A DNA stretch of 64,000 bases from Dehalococcoidia bacterium (GTDB lineage Bacteria; Chloroflexota; Dehalococcoidia; Lucifugimonadales; UBA3495). Position numbers and translations under genes: made by a program. The first letter of the stretch is position 1. Each line of letters opens with the position of its first letter. Below the pieces are notes generated by a model. It saw nothing but the letters and a program-made list of their open reading frames with translations. It was not told where the DNA came from and searched no databases. Below are positions 8,682 to 35,181 of this stretch, piece by piece. Location of the stretch: positions 422,748-486,747 of the forward strand of contig OY843611.1 of assembly GCA_963692995.1 (NCBI GenBank). Reading direction: 5' to 3'.

Positions 8682-8743
8682 CGTCGGTGGGCAATTTGAA
8701 AACCGCACCGTTACGGGAATAACGGCGGGATGATAGGCCCGCT

Positions 8744-8769
8744 GGGTTCCCGCCTTCGCGGGAACGACG
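8744..8769. repeat. single inverted-orientation hairpin unit
   Basis: GGGTTCCCGCCTTCGCGGGAACGACG is the reverse-orientation variant of the CGTCATTCC...GGAATCC unit. Confidence 0.55.
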
Positions 8770-8811
8770 GCGTTGGTCAACGAGGGGAATGACGGCATTT
8801 GTCAACGCGCT

Positions 8812-9630
8812 CTAGGACTGGCGCGCCGTCCCCACAAACTCCTGCCACGCCAGCACGCACTTTTCCGGCGCCGAGTGCTGCACGTAGCCGCCGGCGCCGG
8901 GTACGCGGGCCAGTGTGCAGTTGGGCATCAGATCGGCCTGACCCTGGGCGCGGTCGGGGATGTCGCCCTCGCTCAACTCGCCGACCAGGGCCAGGGCGGG
9001 AGTCTGGATGGCCGGCAGCTTGTCGGACAGGTTCTGCGTACCCAGGTAGGCCAGGGTTTCCAGCGCCACGTGACGGGCGGTCTGGCCCATCTGCTGGATG
9101 TACCACTCATGATGCTCCGGCGCGTCGTCGGCATTAACGCGACGGCCGCCGGTGGCCCGCGCCCAGCCCTCAACACCTTCCTCCGCCACCAGACGGTAAT
9201 AGTTCCGGTAGGTATCCACGCCGGTGAAGTTGTACGGTGACGTGCACGTGGCGACAGTGTGCAGCCGTTCGGGATATTGGTAAGCGAATTGCAGGGCGAT
9301 GGTGCCGCCGATGGTTTCGCCGATCAGATGCACTCGGTCCAGTTCCAGATAGTCCAGCAAGTTCCGCAAGTCGCTGGCAAAGCCTTCCAGGGACCAGTCG
9401 TAGCTGTCGGGCGCCGGCACGGTGGAGCGGCCAAATCCCCGGGCGTCCACGCGGATCACCCGGTACTGCCGCGCCAGCAGCGGCGGCCAGGCGTACCAAA
9501 GCCGGCCGTTCTTGGCGTTGCCGTGATGCAGCACGATGGTTTCTACCGTCGCCGGGTCGCGCCACGGGTCGGTGAAATTATCGTCGTCATAGTGCATTTC
9601 AAGGTTGTCGGCGAGGGCCGCGATGGGCAT
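8812..9630 (-). CDS. alpha/beta-fold hydrolase (nucleophile elbow GETIG)
   Basis: HHGNAKNG...RVIRVDARGFGRS...VHLIGETIGGTIALQFAYQYPERL is the canonical alpha/beta hydrolase layout. Thr sits where the catalytic Ser is expected. Confidence 0.85.
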   Translation of the reverse strand: MPIAALADNLEMHYDDDNFTDPWRDPATVETIVLHHGNAKNGRLWYAWPPLLARQYRVIRVDARGFGRSTVPAPDSYDWSLEGFASDLRNLLDYLELDRVHLIGETIGGTIALQFAYQYPERLHTVATCTSPYNFTGVDTYRNYYRLVAEEGVEGWARATGGRRVNADDAPEHHEWYIQQMGQTARHVALETLAYLGTQNLSDKLPAIQTPALALVGELSEGDIPDRAQGQADLMPNCTLARVPGAGGYVQHSAPEKCVLAWQEFVGTARQS

Positions 9631-28482: not shown

Positions 28483-28620
28483 TTGCTATCGCTGGATGCT
28501 TGCTATCGGTAGATGCTTGCTGGTCATTGCCGGCGGCGCGAGGCAAGCTCGACGCTGTGCGGACCGCCGTTGCAGTCGCGGGATTGCGGCGGCGCTACAC
28601 TTCCGGCAATGACCGAGTGG

Positions 28621-29367
28621 TTACATCGCAGTCCGGCCGCCATCGATGACCAATTCGCTGCCCGTCATGAAGGAAGCTTCGTCGGACGCCAGGAACAGCG
28701 CGCCGTATGCGATGTCCTCGGCCTGCCCCAGGCGACCCAGCGGGGTGCGGTTCAGCCGGTCCTCCCGTCCGCCGGCGGCCAGCAGGTCGGCGGTCATGTC
28801 AGTCTCGATGGTGCCGGGATGCACGCTGTTGCAGCGGATGCCGTCGGCGGCGTGCTGGATGGCGGTAGATTTGGTGAACAGGCGCACCGCGCCTTTTGAC
28901 GCGGTGTAGGCCGAGGAGATGTGGTTGCCCACCAGTCCGGCCACGCTGGAAATGTTGACGATGGAGCCGCCGCCGTTGCGCCTAAGCTCGGGAATGGCTG
29001 CCTTGGTGCCGAGGAACACGCCCTTGGCGTTCACTGCCATGGTGGTGTCCCAGTTGTCCGTGGTGGTGTTTTCCACCGTCTCCGGCATATAGACGCCGGC
29101 GTTGTTCACCAGGATATCCAGCTTGCCGAACTGCTCCACCGTGGCGGCGACGGCAGCTCTCCAGGACTGCTCGTCGGTCACGTCCAGGTGGACGTACCGG
29201 CACTCGCCGCCCAACTCGTTGATTTCGGCTTCCACCTGCCGTCCCAGCTCGTCCCGCAGGTCGCCGATGACCACCTTGCAACCCTCCCGGGAGAACATTC
29301 GCGCTTCAGTGGCGCCCATCCCTCGGGCGCCGCCGCTGATGAGAGCCACCTTGTTTTCCAGTCGCAT
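28621..29367 (-). CDS. SDR family oxidoreductase (SDR-B, left flank of the Uma2 array)
   Basis: Start at ATG 29367: MRLENKVALISGGARGMGATEARMF (TGxxxGxG). C-terminus FMTGSELVIDGGRTAM. Confidence 0.9.
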   Translation of the reverse strand: MRLENKVALISGGARGMGATEARMFSREGCKVVIGDLRDELGRQVEAEINELGGECRYVHLDVTDEQSWRAAVAATVEQFGKLDILVNNAGVYMPETVENTTTDNWDTTMAVNAKGVFLGTKAAIPELRRNGGGSIVNISSVAGLVGNHISSAYTASKGAVRLFTKSTAIQHAADGIRCNSVHPGTIETDMTADLLAAGGREDRLNRTPLGRLGQAEDIAYGALFLASDEASFMTGSELVIDGGRTAM

Positions 29368-29384
29368 TCTGAAATCACCTCGCT

Positions 29385-30143
29385 TTATGGTTGATCCGGC
29401 AAGCGTTGCAACTGCTCGCGGAGCCGGGCGTTTTCGGATTCTAGGGCCAGGAGAGCGTTTTCGGCGGCCTGCCGGGCAGCGGCTTCGGTCTGCCGGGCGT
29501 CCTCGGCTTCCTGGTGGGTCAGGAGCCATTGTCCGGTTGCCGGGTCGTACAACCGCAGCTCCAGGCCGGGCAGCACGCAGATGTCCAGCCCTAATACGGC
29601 GCTGTGTCCGCGCAAGATGCCGGCAGCGTCATTGTACAGCGGCTGCTCCCGGTAGATGCCATCGTCCAGCCGTTCTAGCGCCAGGGCCGGAGTGAAATAG
29701 CTGCCGGTAGGGTCAAAGCGGACGTATTCCTGAACGCCCATTGCAGCATAGATGGGCCTTTTTTCAGTAATGTCGCGCTGCCAAGTGCTTCGGGAGGCTA
29801 CCTCCATCACAAAGTTCGGGGCCCGGCCTTCCCGCCAGACCAGCCAGGAATCGCGGCGATGGTTGCCGGTGGCGCCAAAGACGGCAAAGACGTCCGGCGC
29901 GACCCTTACGTCCGCGCGGTTTATCCGGTAATAGACCAGCATATCGCCGGCAATATAAACATCGTCCCGGTTGCGGTAGCGGACACGGAGGGCGGAAACG
30001 GTGTTGGTGAGGGGAACGTACTGGTGGTCGGATTCGGCCATAGGCTCACCATCGGAGGACGGGTAGCAGATGTTGGGGTCATCCACTTCGTCGTCGCCAT
30101 GGGAAAAGTGGGGGATGGCCGATTCCGCGGACTTGGAGACCAT
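29385..30143 (-). CDS. Uma2 (DUF820) family endonuclease, array copy 1 (1 heptad unit)
   Basis: CYPSSDGEPMAESDHQYV...APDVFAVFG...PNFVMEVASRSTWQRDITEKRPIYAAMGVQEYVRFDP is the canonical Uma2 core. C-terminal coiled coil ...ENALLALESENARLREQLQRL. GGGAG lies 8 nt upstream of the ATG. Confidence 0.85.
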   Translation of the reverse strand: MVSKSAESAIPHFSHGDDEVDDPNICYPSSDGEPMAESDHQYVPLTNTVSALRVRYRNRDDVYIAGDMLVYYRINRADVRVAPDVFAVFGATGNHRRDSWLVWREGRAPNFVMEVASRSTWQRDITEKRPIYAAMGVQEYVRFDPTGSYFTPALALERLDDGIYREQPLYNDAAGILRGHSAVLGLDICVLPGLELRLYDPATGQWLLTHQEAEDARQTEAAARQAAENALLALESENARLREQLQRLPDQP

Positions 30144-30298
30144 GGGCGTTGCTCCCGAGCTGTGGCGGACGTAGGCTGTGGCGCGCGTAGATTGCGGCGG
30201 GGGTAGATTGGTGAAACTTACTGCGCGAACAGCCCGCCGTCAATCACCAACTCGCTGCCGGTCATAGTTATCCAGTCGCATTCTGAAATCACTGCGCT

Positions 30299-31120
30299 TT
30301 ATGGTTGGTCCGGCAAGCGTTGCAACTGCTCGCGGAGTCGGGCGTTTTCGGCTTCTAAGGCCAGGAGAGCGTTTTCGGCAACCTGCCGGGCAGCGGCTTC
30401 GGCCTGCCGGGCAGCGGCTTCGGCCTGCCGGGCAACGGCTTCGGCCTGCCGGGCAACGGCTTCGGCCTGCCGGGCGTCCTCGGCTTCCTGGTGGGTCAGG
30501 AGCCATTGTCCGGTTGCCGGGTCGTACAACCGCAGCTCCAGGCCGGGCAGCACGCAGATGTCCAGCCCTAATACGGCGCTGTGGCCGCGCAAGATGCCGG
30601 CAGCGTCATTGTACAGGGGCTGCTCCCGGTAGATGCCATCGTCCAGCCGTTCTAGCGCCAGGGCCGGAGTGAAATAGCTGCCGGTAGGGTCAAAGCGGAC
30701 GTATTCCTGGACGCCCATTGCAGCATAGATGGGCCTTTTTTCGGTAATGTCGCGCTGCCAAGTGCTTCGGGGGGCTACCTCCATCACAAAGTTCGGGGCC
30801 CGGCCTTCCCGCCAGACCAGCCAGGAATCGCGGCGATGGTTGCCGGTGGCGCCAAAGACGGCAAAGACGTCCGGCGCGACCCTTACGTCCGCGCGGTTTA
30901 TCCGGTAATAGACCAGCATATCGCCGGCAATATAAACATCGTCCCGGTTGCGGTAGCGGACACGGAGGGCGGAAACGGTGTTGGTGAGGGGAACGTACTG
31001 GTGGTCGGATTCGGCCATAGGCTCACCATCGGAGGACGGGTAGCAGATGTTGGGGTCATCCACTTCGTCGTCGCCATGGGAAAAGTGGGGGATGGCCGAT
31101 TCCGCGGACTTGGAGACCAT
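30299..31120 (-). CDS. Uma2 family endonuclease, array copy 2 (4 heptad units)
   Basis: Same protein as copy 1 with EVAPRSTW, and AEAVARQ AEAVARQ AEAAARQ AEAAARQ inserted. Confidence 0.85.
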   Translation of the reverse strand: MVSKSAESAIPHFSHGDDEVDDPNICYPSSDGEPMAESDHQYVPLTNTVSALRVRYRNRDDVYIAGDMLVYYRINRADVRVAPDVFAVFGATGNHRRDSWLVWREGRAPNFVMEVAPRSTWQRDITEKRPIYAAMGVQEYVRFDPTGSYFTPALALERLDDGIYREQPLYNDAAGILRGHSAVLGLDICVLPGLELRLYDPATGQWLLTHQEAEDARQAEAVARQAEAVARQAEAAARQAEAAARQVAENALLALEAENARLREQLQRLPDQP

Positions 31121-31275
31121 GGGCGTTGCTCCCGAGCTGTGGCGGACGTAGGCTGTGGCGCGCGTAGATTGCGGCGGGGGTAGATTGGTGAAACTTACTG
31201 CGCGAACAGCCCGCCGTCAATCACCAACTCGCTGCCGGTCATGGTTATCCAGTCGCATTCTGAAATCACCGCGCT

Positions 31276-32118
31276 TTATGGTTGGTCCGGCAAGCGTTGC
31301 AACTGCTCGCGGAGCCGGGCGTTTTCGGCTTCTAAGGCCAGGAGAGCGTTTTCGGCGGCCTGCCGGGCAATGGCTTCGGCCTGCCGGGCAGCGGCTTCGG
31401 CCTGCCGGGCAGCGGCTTCGGCCTGCCGGGCAATGGCTTCGGCCTGCCGGGCAATGGCTTCGGCTTGTCGGGCGTCCTCGGCTTCCTGGTGGGTCAGCAG
31501 CCATTGTCCGGTTGCCGGGTCGTACAACCGCAGCTCCAGGCCGGGCAGCACGCAGATGTCCAGCCCTAATACGGCGCTGTGTCCGCGCAAGATGCCGGCA
31601 GCGTCATTGTACAGGGGCTGCTCCCGGTAGATGCCATCGTCCAGCCGTTCTAGCGCCAGGGCCGGAGTGAAATAGCTGCCGGTAGGGTCAAAGCGGACGT
31701 ATTCCTGGACGCCCATTGCAGCATAGATGGGCCTTTTTTCGGTAATGTCGCGCTGCCAAGTGCTTCTGGAGGCTACCTCCATCACAAAGTTCGGCGCTCG
31801 GCCTTCCCGCCAGACCAGCCAGGAATCGCGGCGATGGTTGCCGGTGGCGCCAAAGACGGCAAAGACGTCCGGCGCGACCCTTACGTCCGCGCGGTTTATC
31901 CGGTAATAGACCAGCATATCGCCGGCAATATAAACATCGTCCCGGTTGCGGTAGCGGACACGGAGGGCGGAAACGGTGTTGGTGAGGGGAACGTACTGGT
32001 GGTCGGATTCGGCCATAGGCTCACCATCGGAGGACGGGTAGCAGATGTTGGGGTCATCCACTTCGTCGTCGCCATGGGAAAAGTGGGGGATGGCCGATTC
32101 CGCGGACTTGGAGACCAT
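31276..32118 (-). CDS. Uma2 family endonuclease, array copy 3 (5 heptad units)
   Basis: Start taken at ATG 32118 (MVSKSAES...), homologous to the other copies. Five AEA(I/A)ARQ units. Confidence 0.85.
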   Translation of the reverse strand: MVSKSAESAIPHFSHGDDEVDDPNICYPSSDGEPMAESDHQYVPLTNTVSALRVRYRNRDDVYIAGDMLVYYRINRADVRVAPDVFAVFGATGNHRRDSWLVWREGRAPNFVMEVASRSTWQRDITEKRPIYAAMGVQEYVRFDPTGSYFTPALALERLDDGIYREQPLYNDAAGILRGHSAVLGLDICVLPGLELRLYDPATGQWLLTHQEAEDARQAEAIARQAEAIARQAEAAARQAEAAARQAEAIARQAAENALLALEAENARLREQLQRLPDQP

Positions 32119-32257
32119 GGGCGTTGCTCCCGAGCTGTGGCGGACGTAGGCTGTGGCGGGGGTAGATTGGTGAAACTTACTGCGCGAACAGCCCGCCGTC
32201 AATCACCAACTCGCTGCCGGTCATGGTTATCCAGTCGCATTCTGAAATCACCTCGCT

Positions 32258-32995
32258 TTATGGTTGATCCGGCAAGCGTTGCAACTGCTCGCGGAGCCGG
32301 GCGTTTTCGGCTTCTAAGGCCAGCAGAGCGTTTTCGGCAGACTGTCGGGCGTCCTCGGCTTCCTGGTGGGTCAGGAGCCATTGTCCGGTTGCCGGGTCGT
32401 ACAACCGCAGCTCCAGGCCCGGCAGCACGCAGATGTCCAGCCCTAATACGGCGCTGTGGCCGCGCAAGATGCCGGCAGCGTCATTGTACAGCGGCTGCTC
32501 CCGGTAGATTCCATCGTCCAGCCGTTCTAGCGCCAGGGCCGGAGTGAAATAGCTCCCGGTGGGGTCAAAGCGGACGTATTCCTGGACGCCCATTGCAGCA
32601 TAGATGGGCCTTTTTTCGGTAATGTCGCGCTGCCAAGTGCTTCGGGAGGCTACCTCCATCACAAAGTTCGGGGCCCGGCCTTCCCGCCAGACCAGCCAGG
32701 AATCGCGGCGATGGTTGCCGGTGGCGCCAAAGACGGCAAAGACGTCCGGCGCGACCCGAAGGTCCGCGCGGTTTATCCGGTAATAGACCAGCATATCGCC
32801 GGCAATATAAACATCGTCCCGGTTGCGGTAGCGGACACGGAGGGCGGAAACGGTGTTGGTGAGGGGAACGTACTGGTGGTCGGATTCGGCCATAGGCTCA
32901 CCATCGGAGGACGGGTAGCAGATGTTGGGGTCATCCACTTCGTCGTCGCCATGGGAAAAGTGGGGGATGGCCGATTCCGCGGACTTGGAGACCAT
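32258..32995 (-). CDS. Uma2 family endonuclease, array copy 4 (0 heptad units)
   Basis: Same core with RADLRV. EDARQ runs directly into SAENALLALEAEN. Confidence 0.85.
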   Translation of the reverse strand: MVSKSAESAIPHFSHGDDEVDDPNICYPSSDGEPMAESDHQYVPLTNTVSALRVRYRNRDDVYIAGDMLVYYRINRADLRVAPDVFAVFGATGNHRRDSWLVWREGRAPNFVMEVASRSTWQRDITEKRPIYAAMGVQEYVRFDPTGSYFTPALALERLDDGIYREQPLYNDAAGILRGHSAVLGLDICVLPGLELRLYDPATGQWLLTHQEAEDARQSAENALLALEAENARLREQLQRLPDQP

Positions 32996-33150
32996 GGGCG
33001 CTGCTCCCGAGCTGTGGCGGACGTAGGCTGTGGCGCGCGTAGATTGTGGCGGGGGTAGATTGGTGAAACTTACTGCGCGAACAGCCCGCCGTCAATCACC
33101 AACTCGCTGCCGGTCATGGTTATCCAGTCGCATTCTGAAATCACTGCGCT

Positions 33151-33930
33151 TTATGGTTGGTCCGGCAAGCGTTGCAACTGCTCGCGGAGTCGGGCGTTTT
33201 CGGCTTCTAAGGCCAGGAGAGCGTTTTCGGCGGCCTGCCGGGCAACGGCTTCGGCCTGCCGGGCAGCGGCTTCGGCCTGCCGGGCGTCCTCGGCCTCCTG
33301 GTGGGTCAGGAGCCATTGTCCGGTTGCCGGGTCGTACAACCGCAGCTCCAGGTCCGGCAGCACGCAGATGTCCAGCCCTAATACGGCGCTGTGGCCGCGC
33401 AAGATGCCGGCAGCGTCATTGTACAGTGGCTGCTCCCGGTAGATCCCATCGTCCAGCCGTTCTAGCGCCAGGGCCGGAGTGAAATAGCTGCCGGTAGGGT
33501 CAAAGCGGACGTATTCCTGGACGCCCATTGCAGCATAGATGGGCCTTTTTTCGGTAATGTCGCGTTGCCAAGTGCTTCGGGAGGCTACCTCCATCACAAA
33601 GTCCGGGGCCCGGCCTTCCCGCCAGACCAGCCAGGAATCGCGGCGATGGTTGCCGGTGGCGCCAAAGACGGCAAAGACGTCCGGCGCGACCCGAAGGTCC
33701 GCGCGGTTTATCCGGTAATAGACCAGCATATCGCCGGCAATATAAACATCGTTCCGGTTGCGGTAGCGGACACGGAGGGCGGAAACGGTGTTGGTGAGGG
33801 GAACGTACTGGTGGTCGGATTCGGCCATAGGCTCACCATCGGAGGACGGGTAGCAGATGTTGGGGTCATCCACTTCGTCGTCGCCATGGGAAAAGTGGGG
33901 GATGGCCGATTCCGCAGACTTGGAGACCAT
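33151..33930 (-). CDS. Uma2 family endonuclease, array copy 5 (2 heptad units)
   Basis: Same core with RNRND, RADLRV, RAPDF and LPDLE substitutions. AEAAARQ AEAVARQ. Confidence 0.85.
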   Translation of the reverse strand: MVSKSAESAIPHFSHGDDEVDDPNICYPSSDGEPMAESDHQYVPLTNTVSALRVRYRNRNDVYIAGDMLVYYRINRADLRVAPDVFAVFGATGNHRRDSWLVWREGRAPDFVMEVASRSTWQRDITEKRPIYAAMGVQEYVRFDPTGSYFTPALALERLDDGIYREQPLYNDAAGILRGHSAVLGLDICVLPDLELRLYDPATGQWLLTHQEAEDARQAEAAARQAEAVARQAAENALLALEAENARLREQLQRLPDQP

Positions 33931-34004
33931 GGGCGTTGCTCCCGAGCTGTGGCGGACGTAGGCTGTGGCGCGCGTAGATTGTGGCGGGGGTAGATTGGTG
34001 AAAC

Positions 34005-34757
34005 TTACTGCGCGAACAGCCCGCCGTCAATCACCAACTCGCTGCCGGTCATAAAGGACGACTCGTCCGACGCCAGGAACAGCGCTCCCCAGGCCACGTC
34101 TTCGGCCTGCCCGACGCGGCCGAGGGGAGTGCGGTCCAGCGACGCCTGGCGCGCCGCGTCGTCGCGCAGCAAGGTCGGCGTCGTCATGGGCGTCTCGATG
34201 ATGCCCGGATGCACCGAGTTGCAGCGAATGCCCTCGGCCGCGTACTGGATGGCAGTGGACTTGGTGAAAAGGCGCACCGCGCCCTTGGTGGCGCCGTAGG
34301 CGGGCGCCCGCCAGCTGCCGATGAGACCGGCCACGCTGGAGATGTTGACGATGGAGCCGCCGCCGGCCTTCCGCATCTCCGGCAGGGCCGCCTTGGTGCC
34401 CAGGAACACGCCTTTGGCGTTGATGTCGAAGATGTTGTCCCACAGCTCTTCGCTGGTATCCTCGATGCCCACTTGCCGATAGATTCCGGCGTTGTTCACC
34501 AGGATGTCCAGCTTGCCGAACCGCGCCACGGCGGTGTTGACGGCGGCGTTCCACTCGTCCTCGCTGGTGACGTCCAAGCGGACAAAGACGCACTCGCCTC
34601 CGGTCTCGTTGATCTCGGCCTCCAGCTGTCGGCCCGCTTCCTCTAGCACGTCGCCGATAACCACCTTGCAGCCTTCGCCGGCGAATAACCGCGCTTCAGC
34701 AGCCCCCTGCCCGCGCGAGCCGCCGCTAATCAGAGCAACCTTGTTTTCCAAACGCAT
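34005..34757 (-). CDS. SDR family oxidoreductase (SDR-A, right flank of the Uma2 array)
   Basis: Start at ATG 34757: MRLENKVALISGGSRGQGAAEARLF. C-terminus FMTGSELVIDGGLFAQ. Its last 48 nt are repeated at every array junction. Confidence 0.9.
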   Translation of the reverse strand: MRLENKVALISGGSRGQGAAEARLFAGEGCKVVIGDVLEEAGRQLEAEINETGGECVFVRLDVTSEDEWNAAVNTAVARFGKLDILVNNAGIYRQVGIEDTSEELWDNIFDINAKGVFLGTKAALPEMRKAGGGSIVNISSVAGLIGSWRAPAYGATKGAVRLFTKSTAIQYAAEGIRCNSVHPGIIETPMTTPTLLRDDAARQASLDRTPLGRVGQAEDVAWGALFLASDESSFMTGSELVIDGGLFAQ

Positions 34758-34894
34758 AGTGACACCTCGAACCTGAAGCAACATTTCTTGGGAACATCAG
34801 CCGGGAGTATGACTAATCGGCAGGCACGATTGTAACTCTGAAGGGAAGGGCGTCAAGAGATGTGATGGCGCTGTGTTCGGTTCAGAGGGTAGCG

Positions 34895-34923
34895 TTGACC
34901 GTGCGACTAGTTGGCTTTATATT
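34895..34923 (+). promoter_or_regulatory. sigma70-like promoter
   Basis: TTGACC, a 17-nt spacer, then TATATT, in an AT-rich 0.4-kb intergenic region about 210 nt upstream of the SBP gene. Confidence 0.5.
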
Positions 34924-35181
34924 ACTCGCTTGAACAATCGAACACACGAATCGGCGCCGGTCGCCGGTTCGGATTTTCGCTCGCTCATTGACGTTCATCG
35001 GCGGTGCGTTGTTGTCCGCGGGAGTGGATGTCGTACGTTTGCCATCCGCGTTGCACGGAACGCATGAGGCAGGCTGGACGCTGGAGCGCGGTGTTCGTTT
35101 AAAATTCACCTTAGAAAAAAGAGGAGAATCGTTATGCTCAAATTATTGATATAAAGTATCGCAAATACTGCCGCGGGCGCC

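Follow-up and report, generated by a model that had tools for sequence, protein, structure and literature searches.

Tandem Uma2 genes with C-terminal stalks of variable heptad number between two short-chain dehydrogenase genes of Dehalococcoidia

Uma2 (DUF820, COG4636) is a family of predicted PD-(D/E)xK nucleases to which no role has been assigned (PMC3424549). With 5,356 clusters found at 50% identity it belongs to the largest bacterial protein families for which no role is known. In cyanobacteria, cassettes of Uma2/COG4636 paralogues were described that comprise 114 COG4636-COG4636 neighbour pairs without an antitoxin partner (Makarova, Wolf and Koonin, 2009, PMC2701414), and expansions of the family were reported for Thermus (PMC1274311) and Thermosynechococcus (PMC9403480). 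Here we analyzed a stretch of 64,000 nucleotides from a Dehalococcoidia bacterium (contig OY843611.1, positions 422,748 to 486,747; hereafter the window), in which five Uma2 genes lie in tandem between two genes encoding short-chain dehydrogenases (SDR-A and SDR-B). The initial annotation of this DNA assumed that no multi-copy Uma2 battery had been described, which does not hold in view of the cassettes published in 2009.

The array shares with these cassettes the Pfam family, the adjacency of the genes without an antitoxin and the predicted nuclease. The cassettes were, however, published as paralogues without junction analysis, whereas the copies found here are 97-99% identical, are joined by a datable chimeric scar and evolve in concert, with copy-number polymorphism at one orthologous locus and C-terminal stalks that differ by whole heptads. 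Compared to the cassettes, two of the related loci described below (L016 and L017) resemble an older, diverged stage. The array also resembles the products of two-step amplification (Poteete, 2009, PMC2656507) in having head-to-tail units, one novel join that is repeated and a copy number that varies among close relatives. The textbook cases are young, identical and unstable without selection, whereas the array copies are mosaic and conserved across strains and lineages, with a proportion of synonymous differences (pS) within arrays of 0.05-0.09; they are neither young nor identical, differing by 1.3-3% and being under purifying selection. The Rpn arrays of Thermosynechococcus TA-1 (PMC9403480) are likewise tandem (11, 3, and 3 copies), of PD-(D/E)xK type and expanded in a strain-specific manner, but Rpn is another family and analyses of junctions, heptads and selection are not reported there. 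Cassettes of Uma2 genes and two-step amplification are therefore already known; to judge by the literature searched, what is new is that amplification recurred at one orthologous slot, that the copies were maintained over a long time under purifying selection while evolving in concert, and that the stalk is hypervariable in steps of whole heptads, so that the copies are isoforms of different length. We consider it likely that the locus is a real and long-lived tandem multigene array encoding heptad-variable isoforms and not a transient amplification.

Five Uma2 units and their chimeric junctions

The array extends over positions 29352-34052 of the minus strand and consists of five head-to-tail units (34052-33118, 33117-32225, 32224-31243, 31242-30266, and 30265-29352; features in Table 1). 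The units are set by an exact 48-nt motif, ATGACCGGCAGCGAGTTGGTGATTGACGGCGGGCTGTTCGCGCAGTAA, with minus-strand copies at 34052, 33117, 32224, 31242, and 30265. The first of these five is the genuine 3' end of SDR-A and the remaining four sit in the junctions. From the SDR-A side the units measure 935, 893, 982, 977, and 914 nt, in line with the lengths given in the initial annotation (the last one there as approximately 910). Its gene order on the minus strand, SDR-A followed by Uma2 copies 5 to 1 and SDR-B, was borne out by Pfam and by a repeat search, which returned five 300-nt blocks that are 97-100% identical and spaced 977, 998, 877, and 935 nt apart. Five copies of 0.9 kb that are 97-99% identical cannot have arisen by chance. 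No other Uma2 genes were found within the 64-kb window, which has a GC content of 62.8%.

Every internal junction reads, in order, the Uma2 stop codon (TAA), the 17-nt leader of SDR-B, ATGCGACTGGATAAC, dC or dT, and the 48-nt SDR-A tail. ATGCGACTGGATAAC equals codons 1-5 of SDR-B (15 nt) with one A-to-T change. The scar proposed initially, with the leader and 5'-terminal 15 nt of SDR-B running into the 48-nt SDR-A tail, is thus present at each of them.

All five copies have intact open reading frames (ORFs) and a GGGAG, as had been stated; the GGGAG is located 8 nt 5' of the ATG. They match Pfam Uma2 (PF05685) with 53.7-61.2 bits relative to a cut-off of 27, and Pfam identifies the genes on either side as classical SDRs. 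NCBIfam returned no model for the Uma2 copies, and both SDRs scored under every equivalog cut-off. The differences in unit length are mostly due to a 21-nt coding repeat that was overlooked before; it encodes the seven residues ARQAEA(A/V/I), with 1, 4, 5, 0, and 2 units in copies 1-5. In the spacer 5' of each Uma2 start codon a further tandem repeat, of 16 nt and 2-3 units, was found (33948-33997, 33013-33062, 31136-31167, and 30159-30190), with one unit fewer before copy 3, so the 16-nt indel noted there is real. It constitutes a second small variable-number tandem repeat (VNTR) per unit.

The substitutions S117P, V79L, N110D, G193D, and D60N, listed previously, were all recovered. E37, D84, E114, and K128 are present in all five copies. 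D110, located in the motif APDFVMEV, is shared by all of 61 homologues and corresponds to a D in the aligned Uma2 structure 9y1l; window copies 1-4 have N instead (codon, e.g., 29814-29816). S117 is kept in at least 90% of the homologues and is P in copy 2 (codon 30770-30772).

Table 1. Features of the Uma2 array and its flanks; positions refer to the window.
Feature	Position	Strand	Remarks
SDR-A, short-chain dehydrogenase, 250 aa	34005..34757	-	Pfam adh_short_C2 1.4e-67; L001 orthologue called from the same start
Last 48 nt of SDR-A, start of unit 5	34052-34005	-	motif ATGACCGGCAGCGAGTTGGTGATTGACGGCGGGCTGTTCGCGCAGTAA
Uma2 copy 5, 259 aa, 6-heptad stalk	33151..33930	-	D110 kept; identical to P0122
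Uma2 copy 4, 245 aa, 4-heptad stalk	32258..32995	-	zero ARQAEAx units; N110; identical to P0129
Uma2 copy 3, 280 aa, 9-heptad stalk	31276..32118	-	N110; spacer one 16-nt unit short; identical to P0123
Uma2 copy 2, 273 aa, 8-heptad stalk	30299..31120	-	N110 and S117P; identical to P0001
Uma2 copy 1, 252 aa, 5-heptad stalk	29385..30143	-	N110; positional counterpart of L001 U5; identical to P0124
SDR-B, 248 aa	28621..29367	-	SDR by Pfam; leader and first 15 nt recur at every junction (junction comparison)
Scar between copies 5 and 4 (SDR-B head 15 nt, one base, SDR-A tail 48 nt)	33070..33133	-	joining base C
Scar between copies 4 and 3	32177..32240	-	joining base C
Scar between copies 3 and 2	31195..31258	-	joining base C
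Scar between copies 2 and 1	30218..30281	-	joining base T
21-nt coding tandem repeat, copy 3, 5.6 units	31356..31473	-	encodes ARQAEA(A/V/I) heptads
21-nt coding repeat, copy 2, 4.5 units	30382-30475	-	tandem-repeat search
21-nt coding repeat, copy 5, 2.6 units	33231-33285	-	tandem-repeat search
Promoter-like TTGACG-16-TACAAT, 5' of SDR-A	34829..34856	-	consensus scan only

Relatives, age and recombination of the array

The five window proteins were found to be those five members of a 90%-identity cluster that are located on an NCBI/ENA contig of 3,293,860 bp. Five further members of the cluster are located on L001 (ERZ21742358), a 3,149,110-bp contig of a second metagenome-assembled genome (MAG) from another sample. 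The flanks of the two loci are approximately 99% identical, with 0-8 differences per 500 nt. L001 has the gene order of the window and five Uma2 copies, and the join of SDR-B head and SDR-A tail is alike in all four junctions of either locus. The L001 copies encode 266, 273, 245, 280, and 252 aa as compared to 259, 245, 280, 273, and 252 aa in the window; one 16-nt spacer unit is missing before the L001 280-aa copy as it is before copy 3, and all five carry D110. One interval of L001 (9001-9500; window approximately 34430-34930, the 5' half of SDR-A and upstream) differs from the window by 20 nucleotides per 500. Between the two strains pS is 0.08 for SDR-A and 0.005 for SDR-B.

All relatives found are MAGs labelled Dehalococcoidia, and copies were counted between SDR-A and SDR-B. 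Both the single-copy SDR-Uma2-SDR state and the copy-number polymorphism for which the initial annotation suggested a search were encountered. L004 (the same as L005; OY282456.1) and L007 (OZ241860.1) carry one Uma2 copy, L003 and L006 carry two, L014 three, L015 at least four and L002 seven. L016 and L017 each carry two more diverged paralogues along with an unrelated TIMP-like gene. Close pairs with unequal copy number are L002 (seven) and L014 (three), and L003 (two) and L015 (at least four). In L015 a run of N at approximately 8700-8830 breaks an additional Uma2 copy right after SDR-A. Since scaffolds from short reads break inside arrays, copy numbers from such assemblies are lower bounds.

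The junctions are of at least three kinds. Besides that of the window and L001, the junction of L003 and L015 joins approximately 100 nt of SDR-B head to a point 19 nt 5' of the Uma2 start, SDR-B being degraded in that lineage, and the junction of L006 consists of 46 nt of other sequence and 39 nt of the upstream spacer. The first junction of L014 has the SDR-B leader and the identical 15-nt head, followed by a decayed stretch that is collinear with SDR-A tail and spacer (middle part relative to shuffles, p ~0.03; SDR-B scores similarly), and the L002 junctions are further-deleted versions of it. By this comparison, the arrays of the window and of L002 and L014 probably go back to one old duplication. 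Whether or not their scars share an origin, at least three independent amplifications of the same gene took place at this position.

The alignment of the ten units of the window and L001 has 52 variable columns among 877 ungapped ones, and 27 variable codons in the coding part are synonymous and 12 non-synonymous. The mean ratio of the proportions of non-synonymous and synonymous differences (pN/pS) was 0.09 in the window, 0.09 in L001, 0.16 in L002, 0.20 in L014, and 0.15 in L003 and L015 taken together. Between lineages, codon-aligned dN/dS was 0.10-0.16 for Uma2 relative to 0.03-0.09 for the two SDRs, and synteny was conserved across a dS of approximately 0.7. With such values all copies behave as functional genes, and by the same ratios the Uma2 copies evolve two to three times faster in protein sequence than their SDR neighbours.

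Copies differ at 11-29 of the 877 sites (1.3-3.3%, pS ~0.05), while flank divergence between the two strains is 0.5-1%. The copies differing more than the flanks do between strains argues that the array predates the split of window and L001. Since their pS exceeds the flank divergence and purifying selection is seen, the array, as judged from the sequences, is not a fresh amplification.

In the four-gamete test all four gametes were present for 248 of the 465 informative site pairs. Certain alleles were spread through several copies of one strain only (GTAAGG vs. CTTCGG in codons 79-80, N110 vs. D110). In a neighbour-joining tree of the nuclease domain the copies grouped by lineage, with 0-4% divergence within and 16-29% between lineages; the copies of L003 and L015 grouped by strain despite their common junction, and two copies in L015 are identical. 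The mosaic alleles, the four gametes and the clustering by lineage and strain point to unequal crossing-over and gene conversion, so that by sequence pattern the locus qualifies as a concertedly evolving multigene array.

The 48-nt part of the scar was found invariant in the eight junctions and both true SDR-A tails of the window and L001 (window 33070-33117, 32177-32224, 31195-31242, 30218-30265, and 34005-34052). In the same ten units variation affects 27 of approximately 180 synonymous sites and 9 of the 91 remaining non-coding columns, and the probability of 0 variable sites among 48 is approximately 4e-4 at the synonymous rate or 7e-3 at the other non-coding rate. This points to either constraint, possibly an internal promoter, or biased conversion. 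The homologous stretch has decayed in L002 and L014. A promoter in each junction was considered and rejected: the consensus scan reports none, and a TTGACG-17-TAAGTT spanning the SDR-A stop codon, which might explain the invariance, is sub-threshold and not conserved in L002, L003, and L006. The junction RNA had a minimum free energy of -47.9 kcal/mol (z = 0.05) and gave no signal of structure.

The heptad stalk and readings of the array

The AlphaFold2 model (predicted template modelling score 0.70) combines an alpha/beta core of the Uma2 type with a small beta-rich subdomain and a single long helix, which is uninterrupted over residues 210-254 with a predicted local distance difference test score above 90. 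Significant Foldseek matches in the PDB were limited to the Uma2 structures 9y1l, 6okh, 1wdj, and 3ot2 (probability 1.00), all uncharacterised, and the PDB sequence search gave only a weak match to 9y1l (E = 0.14). As modelled, the copies share the restriction-endonuclease-like fold of the solved Uma2 structures; together with the Pfam scores above cut-off this agrees with the PD-(D/E)xK fold assigned at first. Neither the fold nor the sequence search of the PDB provided a functional lead for the Uma2 copies.

The tail of the stalk ends in a leucine-zipper-like segment, ALLALEAENARLREQLQRL, with L/N/L in the a positions and L/L/L in the d positions; the central a position is N, I or V in homologues. 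The ARQAEAx units lie between the nuclease domain and the terminal zipper and contain E(i)-R(i+4) pairs, which in our reading would stabilise the helix. Their number (0-5) changes the length of the heptad-periodic helix with the register kept. Stalk length, counted from the conserved Trp at the domain end to the Leu in the L[RKQ]xx[LMI] motif at the terminus, was an exact multiple of seven in 117 of the 118 cluster representatives and ranged from 21 to 91 residues (3-13 heptads). For distant representatives (38-58% identity, cruder anchors) 51 of 70 gave a multiple of seven, where approximately 10 are expected by chance. From the SDR-A side the window stalks have 6, 4, 9, 8, and 5 heptads, those of L001 7, 8, 4, 9, and 5, and those of L002 3, 3, 4, 4, 4, 3, and 5. 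Equal length does not mark orthologues between the window and L001, as this was ruled out by differing internal A/V/I patterns. A hypervariable length with a conserved heptad phase argues for packing of the coiled-coil kind, in which the register between stalk and nuclease head would matter. In the distant Uma2 relatives P0182, P0188, and P0198 a small extra, helix-turn-helix-like C-terminal domain was seen beyond the repeat-rich stalk (e.g., ...LISLGLTIDQVAETLNLSTEAVQELL).

The array was founded by an illegitimate join of SDR-B nt 15 to SDR-A nt -48, which duplicated a unit of approximately 0.9 kb (spacer, Uma2 and SDR-B leader). Unequal homologous crossing-over and gene conversion between units then altered copy number and shuffled variants, with purifying selection holding every copy. 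The duplication from inside the SDR-A 3' end to inside the SDR-B 5' end, followed by unequal crossing-over, was the origin proposed initially, and it fits all observations. Slippage of the 21-nt coding repeat gives each copy a distinct C-terminal helix of 4, 5, 6, 8, or 9 heptads. In the protein, a PD-(D/E)xK nuclease head would be followed by a coiled-coil stalk of heptad periodicity with a terminal leucine zipper (core a = N/I/V, d = L), and the protein is therefore likely to form oligomers.

What is selected in such an array may be the presence of several stalk-length isoforms in one cell, a reading that we favour tentatively. At least two stalk lengths are retained in all nine multi-copy loci, and the family-wide variation in length with a strict heptad phase suggests that length is a functional variable. 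That dosage alone matters is possible but has a lower standing with us. In its explicit form, in which more nuclease is selected or the array is merely tolerated and the tail lengths and point variants are neutral noise of an unstable 21-nt repeat, we regard it as unlikely. In its favour, dosage is normally raised by duplication and subsequent RecA-dependent expansion (PMC2656507), L002 holds several equal stalks and L015 the two identical copies, and the internal differences between equal-length stalks of two strains imply that stalk lengths turn over fast. The two retained lengths per locus and the strict phase speak against it, as does the fact that unselected tandem repeats are normally lost by recombination, whereas the copies here predate the strain split and persist in several lineages.

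Selfish or other explanations take up what remains beyond the isoform and dosage readings. A mobile, toxin-like Uma2 gene that duplicates in a variable slot, driven by its own nuclease activity or by local breaks, is improbable in our view. Uma2/COG4636 was proposed as a likely solo toxin forming paralogue cassettes (PMC2701414), DUF820 genes are found inside unrelated operons such as hox (PMC4963859), at least three junction types exist and the interval between SDR-A and SDR-B takes other cargo, namely the TIMP-like gene of L016 and L017 and a methyltransferase-HNH gene next to SDR-B in L004 and L007. However, terminal repeats, a transposase and target-site duplications were not found for the units, the window holds no further Uma2 copies and the scan of viral contigs found no relatives; strong purifying selection and synteny across the dS given above fit a host-beneficial gene better. 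An assembly artefact, i.e., strain variants of a single Uma2 gene that were concatenated, is very improbable, for although the source is a MAG, units of 97-99% identity are repeats that assemblers mishandle and copy order differs between the window and L001, the chimera of SDR-B head and SDR-A tail requires at least two physically tandem copies, the scenario is contradicted by the independent 3.15-Mb assembly from another sample with five copies and the same scar, seven more loci in other MAGs have 2-7 copies, and every ORF is intact, with variants that are mostly synonymous and mosaic between copies.

Several observations weigh against a maintained set of isoforms. The literature searched contained no published activity or biochemical function of any Uma2 member, and stalk lengths may differ neutrally, simply because the repeat is prone to slippage. 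Because D110N affects an invariant residue in four of the five copies and S117P is found in copy 2, the copies are possibly unequal as active enzymes. Array copy numbers were read from assembled sequence, and the co-transcription considered below was predicted from sequence. The neighbourhood is metabolic and lacks the character of a defence island.

As to function, the protein probably acts as a 'solo toxin' of the Uma2 type or as a defence-like predicted nuclease. The Uma2 copies match four hidden Markov models of the candidate defence system PDC-S03 in PADLOC (best E = 6.6e-10, PDLC04833), but PDC comprises candidate systems only and the metabolic neighbourhood does not provide the defence-island context. 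A comparison to type II toxin-antitoxin systems found no adjacent antitoxin: the units contain no small partner ORF, and the mini-ORFs of the scar are not conserved, one L001 junction having ATC for ATG.

For the variable helix, the nearest mechanistic analogue is the type IC HsdS subunit, in which the TAEL repeat distinguishes EcoR124I (GAA-N6-RTCG) from EcoR124II (GAA-N7-RTCG) (Loenen et al., 2014, PMC3874165). Here too a short in-frame repeat alters the length of a coiled coil in a protein of a nuclease system, and the number of repeats is a molecular ruler in HsdS. The HsdS repeat is, however, of 4 aa and lies between two DNA-reading domains with its function demonstrated, whereas that of Uma2 is of 7 aa, follows a single nuclease domain and occurs as several alleles side by side, so that the likeness is an analogy only. 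By this analogy, which we put forward as speculative, the array might be an isoform battery in which the stalk acts as a ruler and each length has its own head spacing, target spacing or partner; VNTR slippage and unequal crossing-over would regenerate the set, and D110N copies, with attenuated catalysis, could serve as partners in heteromers formed through the zipper. If so, the array would diversify a defence-like or toxin-like nuclease in a simple way, by recombination.

The locus provides a natural experiment, with one gene at one chromosomal position present in 1 to 7 copies in related genomes and with datable scars. It is an example of a bacterial tandem amplification that turned into a stable, concertedly evolving array, and the published cassettes of diverged Uma2 paralogues may have originated in a similar way. 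It yields two testable ideas, namely that stalk length is a fast-evolving functional parameter of the subfamily and that cells benefit from holding several stalk lengths at once.

Expression signals and neighbouring genes

The promoter-like site 5' of SDR-A (Table 1) is the only sigma-70-like site on the coding strand, and the same motif was found upstream of SDR-A in L001 and L002. In the consensus scan the coding strand of the array was free of terminator-like sites. With one conserved promoter-like site and no such terminator, co-transcription of the Uma2 copies with the SDR genes is plausible, and the Uma2 genes may ride in an operon from SDR-A to SDR-B with a single promoter upstream of SDR-A. 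On the plus strand a terminator-like hairpin with a T-run was found inside each Uma2 gene (29736-29757, 30713-30734, 31711-31732, 32588-32609, and 33523-33544) and also in all seven L002 copies. It is probably coincidental as a terminator, being on the wrong strand and inside the conserved coding sequence EKRPIYAAMG.

The neighbouring genes encode SDRs, a peptide ABC transporter, an ion channel, GGT, and NuoE/F-like proteins. In L004 (11659-12927) and L007 (11796-13133) a gene fusing N6_N4 methyltransferase and HNH domains is located directly 3' of SDR-B; the window, L001, and L002 lack this gene. Among the Uma2 genes of L016 (6467-7090) and L017 (7345-7929) lies the gene for a weakly TIMP-like protein (E = 0.004) of 194-207 aa that carries a signal or anchor sequence, the two versions being 61% identical. 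Its presence suggests that the interval between SDR-A and SDR-B is a slot for variable cargo. A 17-nt tandem repeat of 2.3 units (28483-28521) is located in the window between SDR-B and the ion-transport gene 3' of it.

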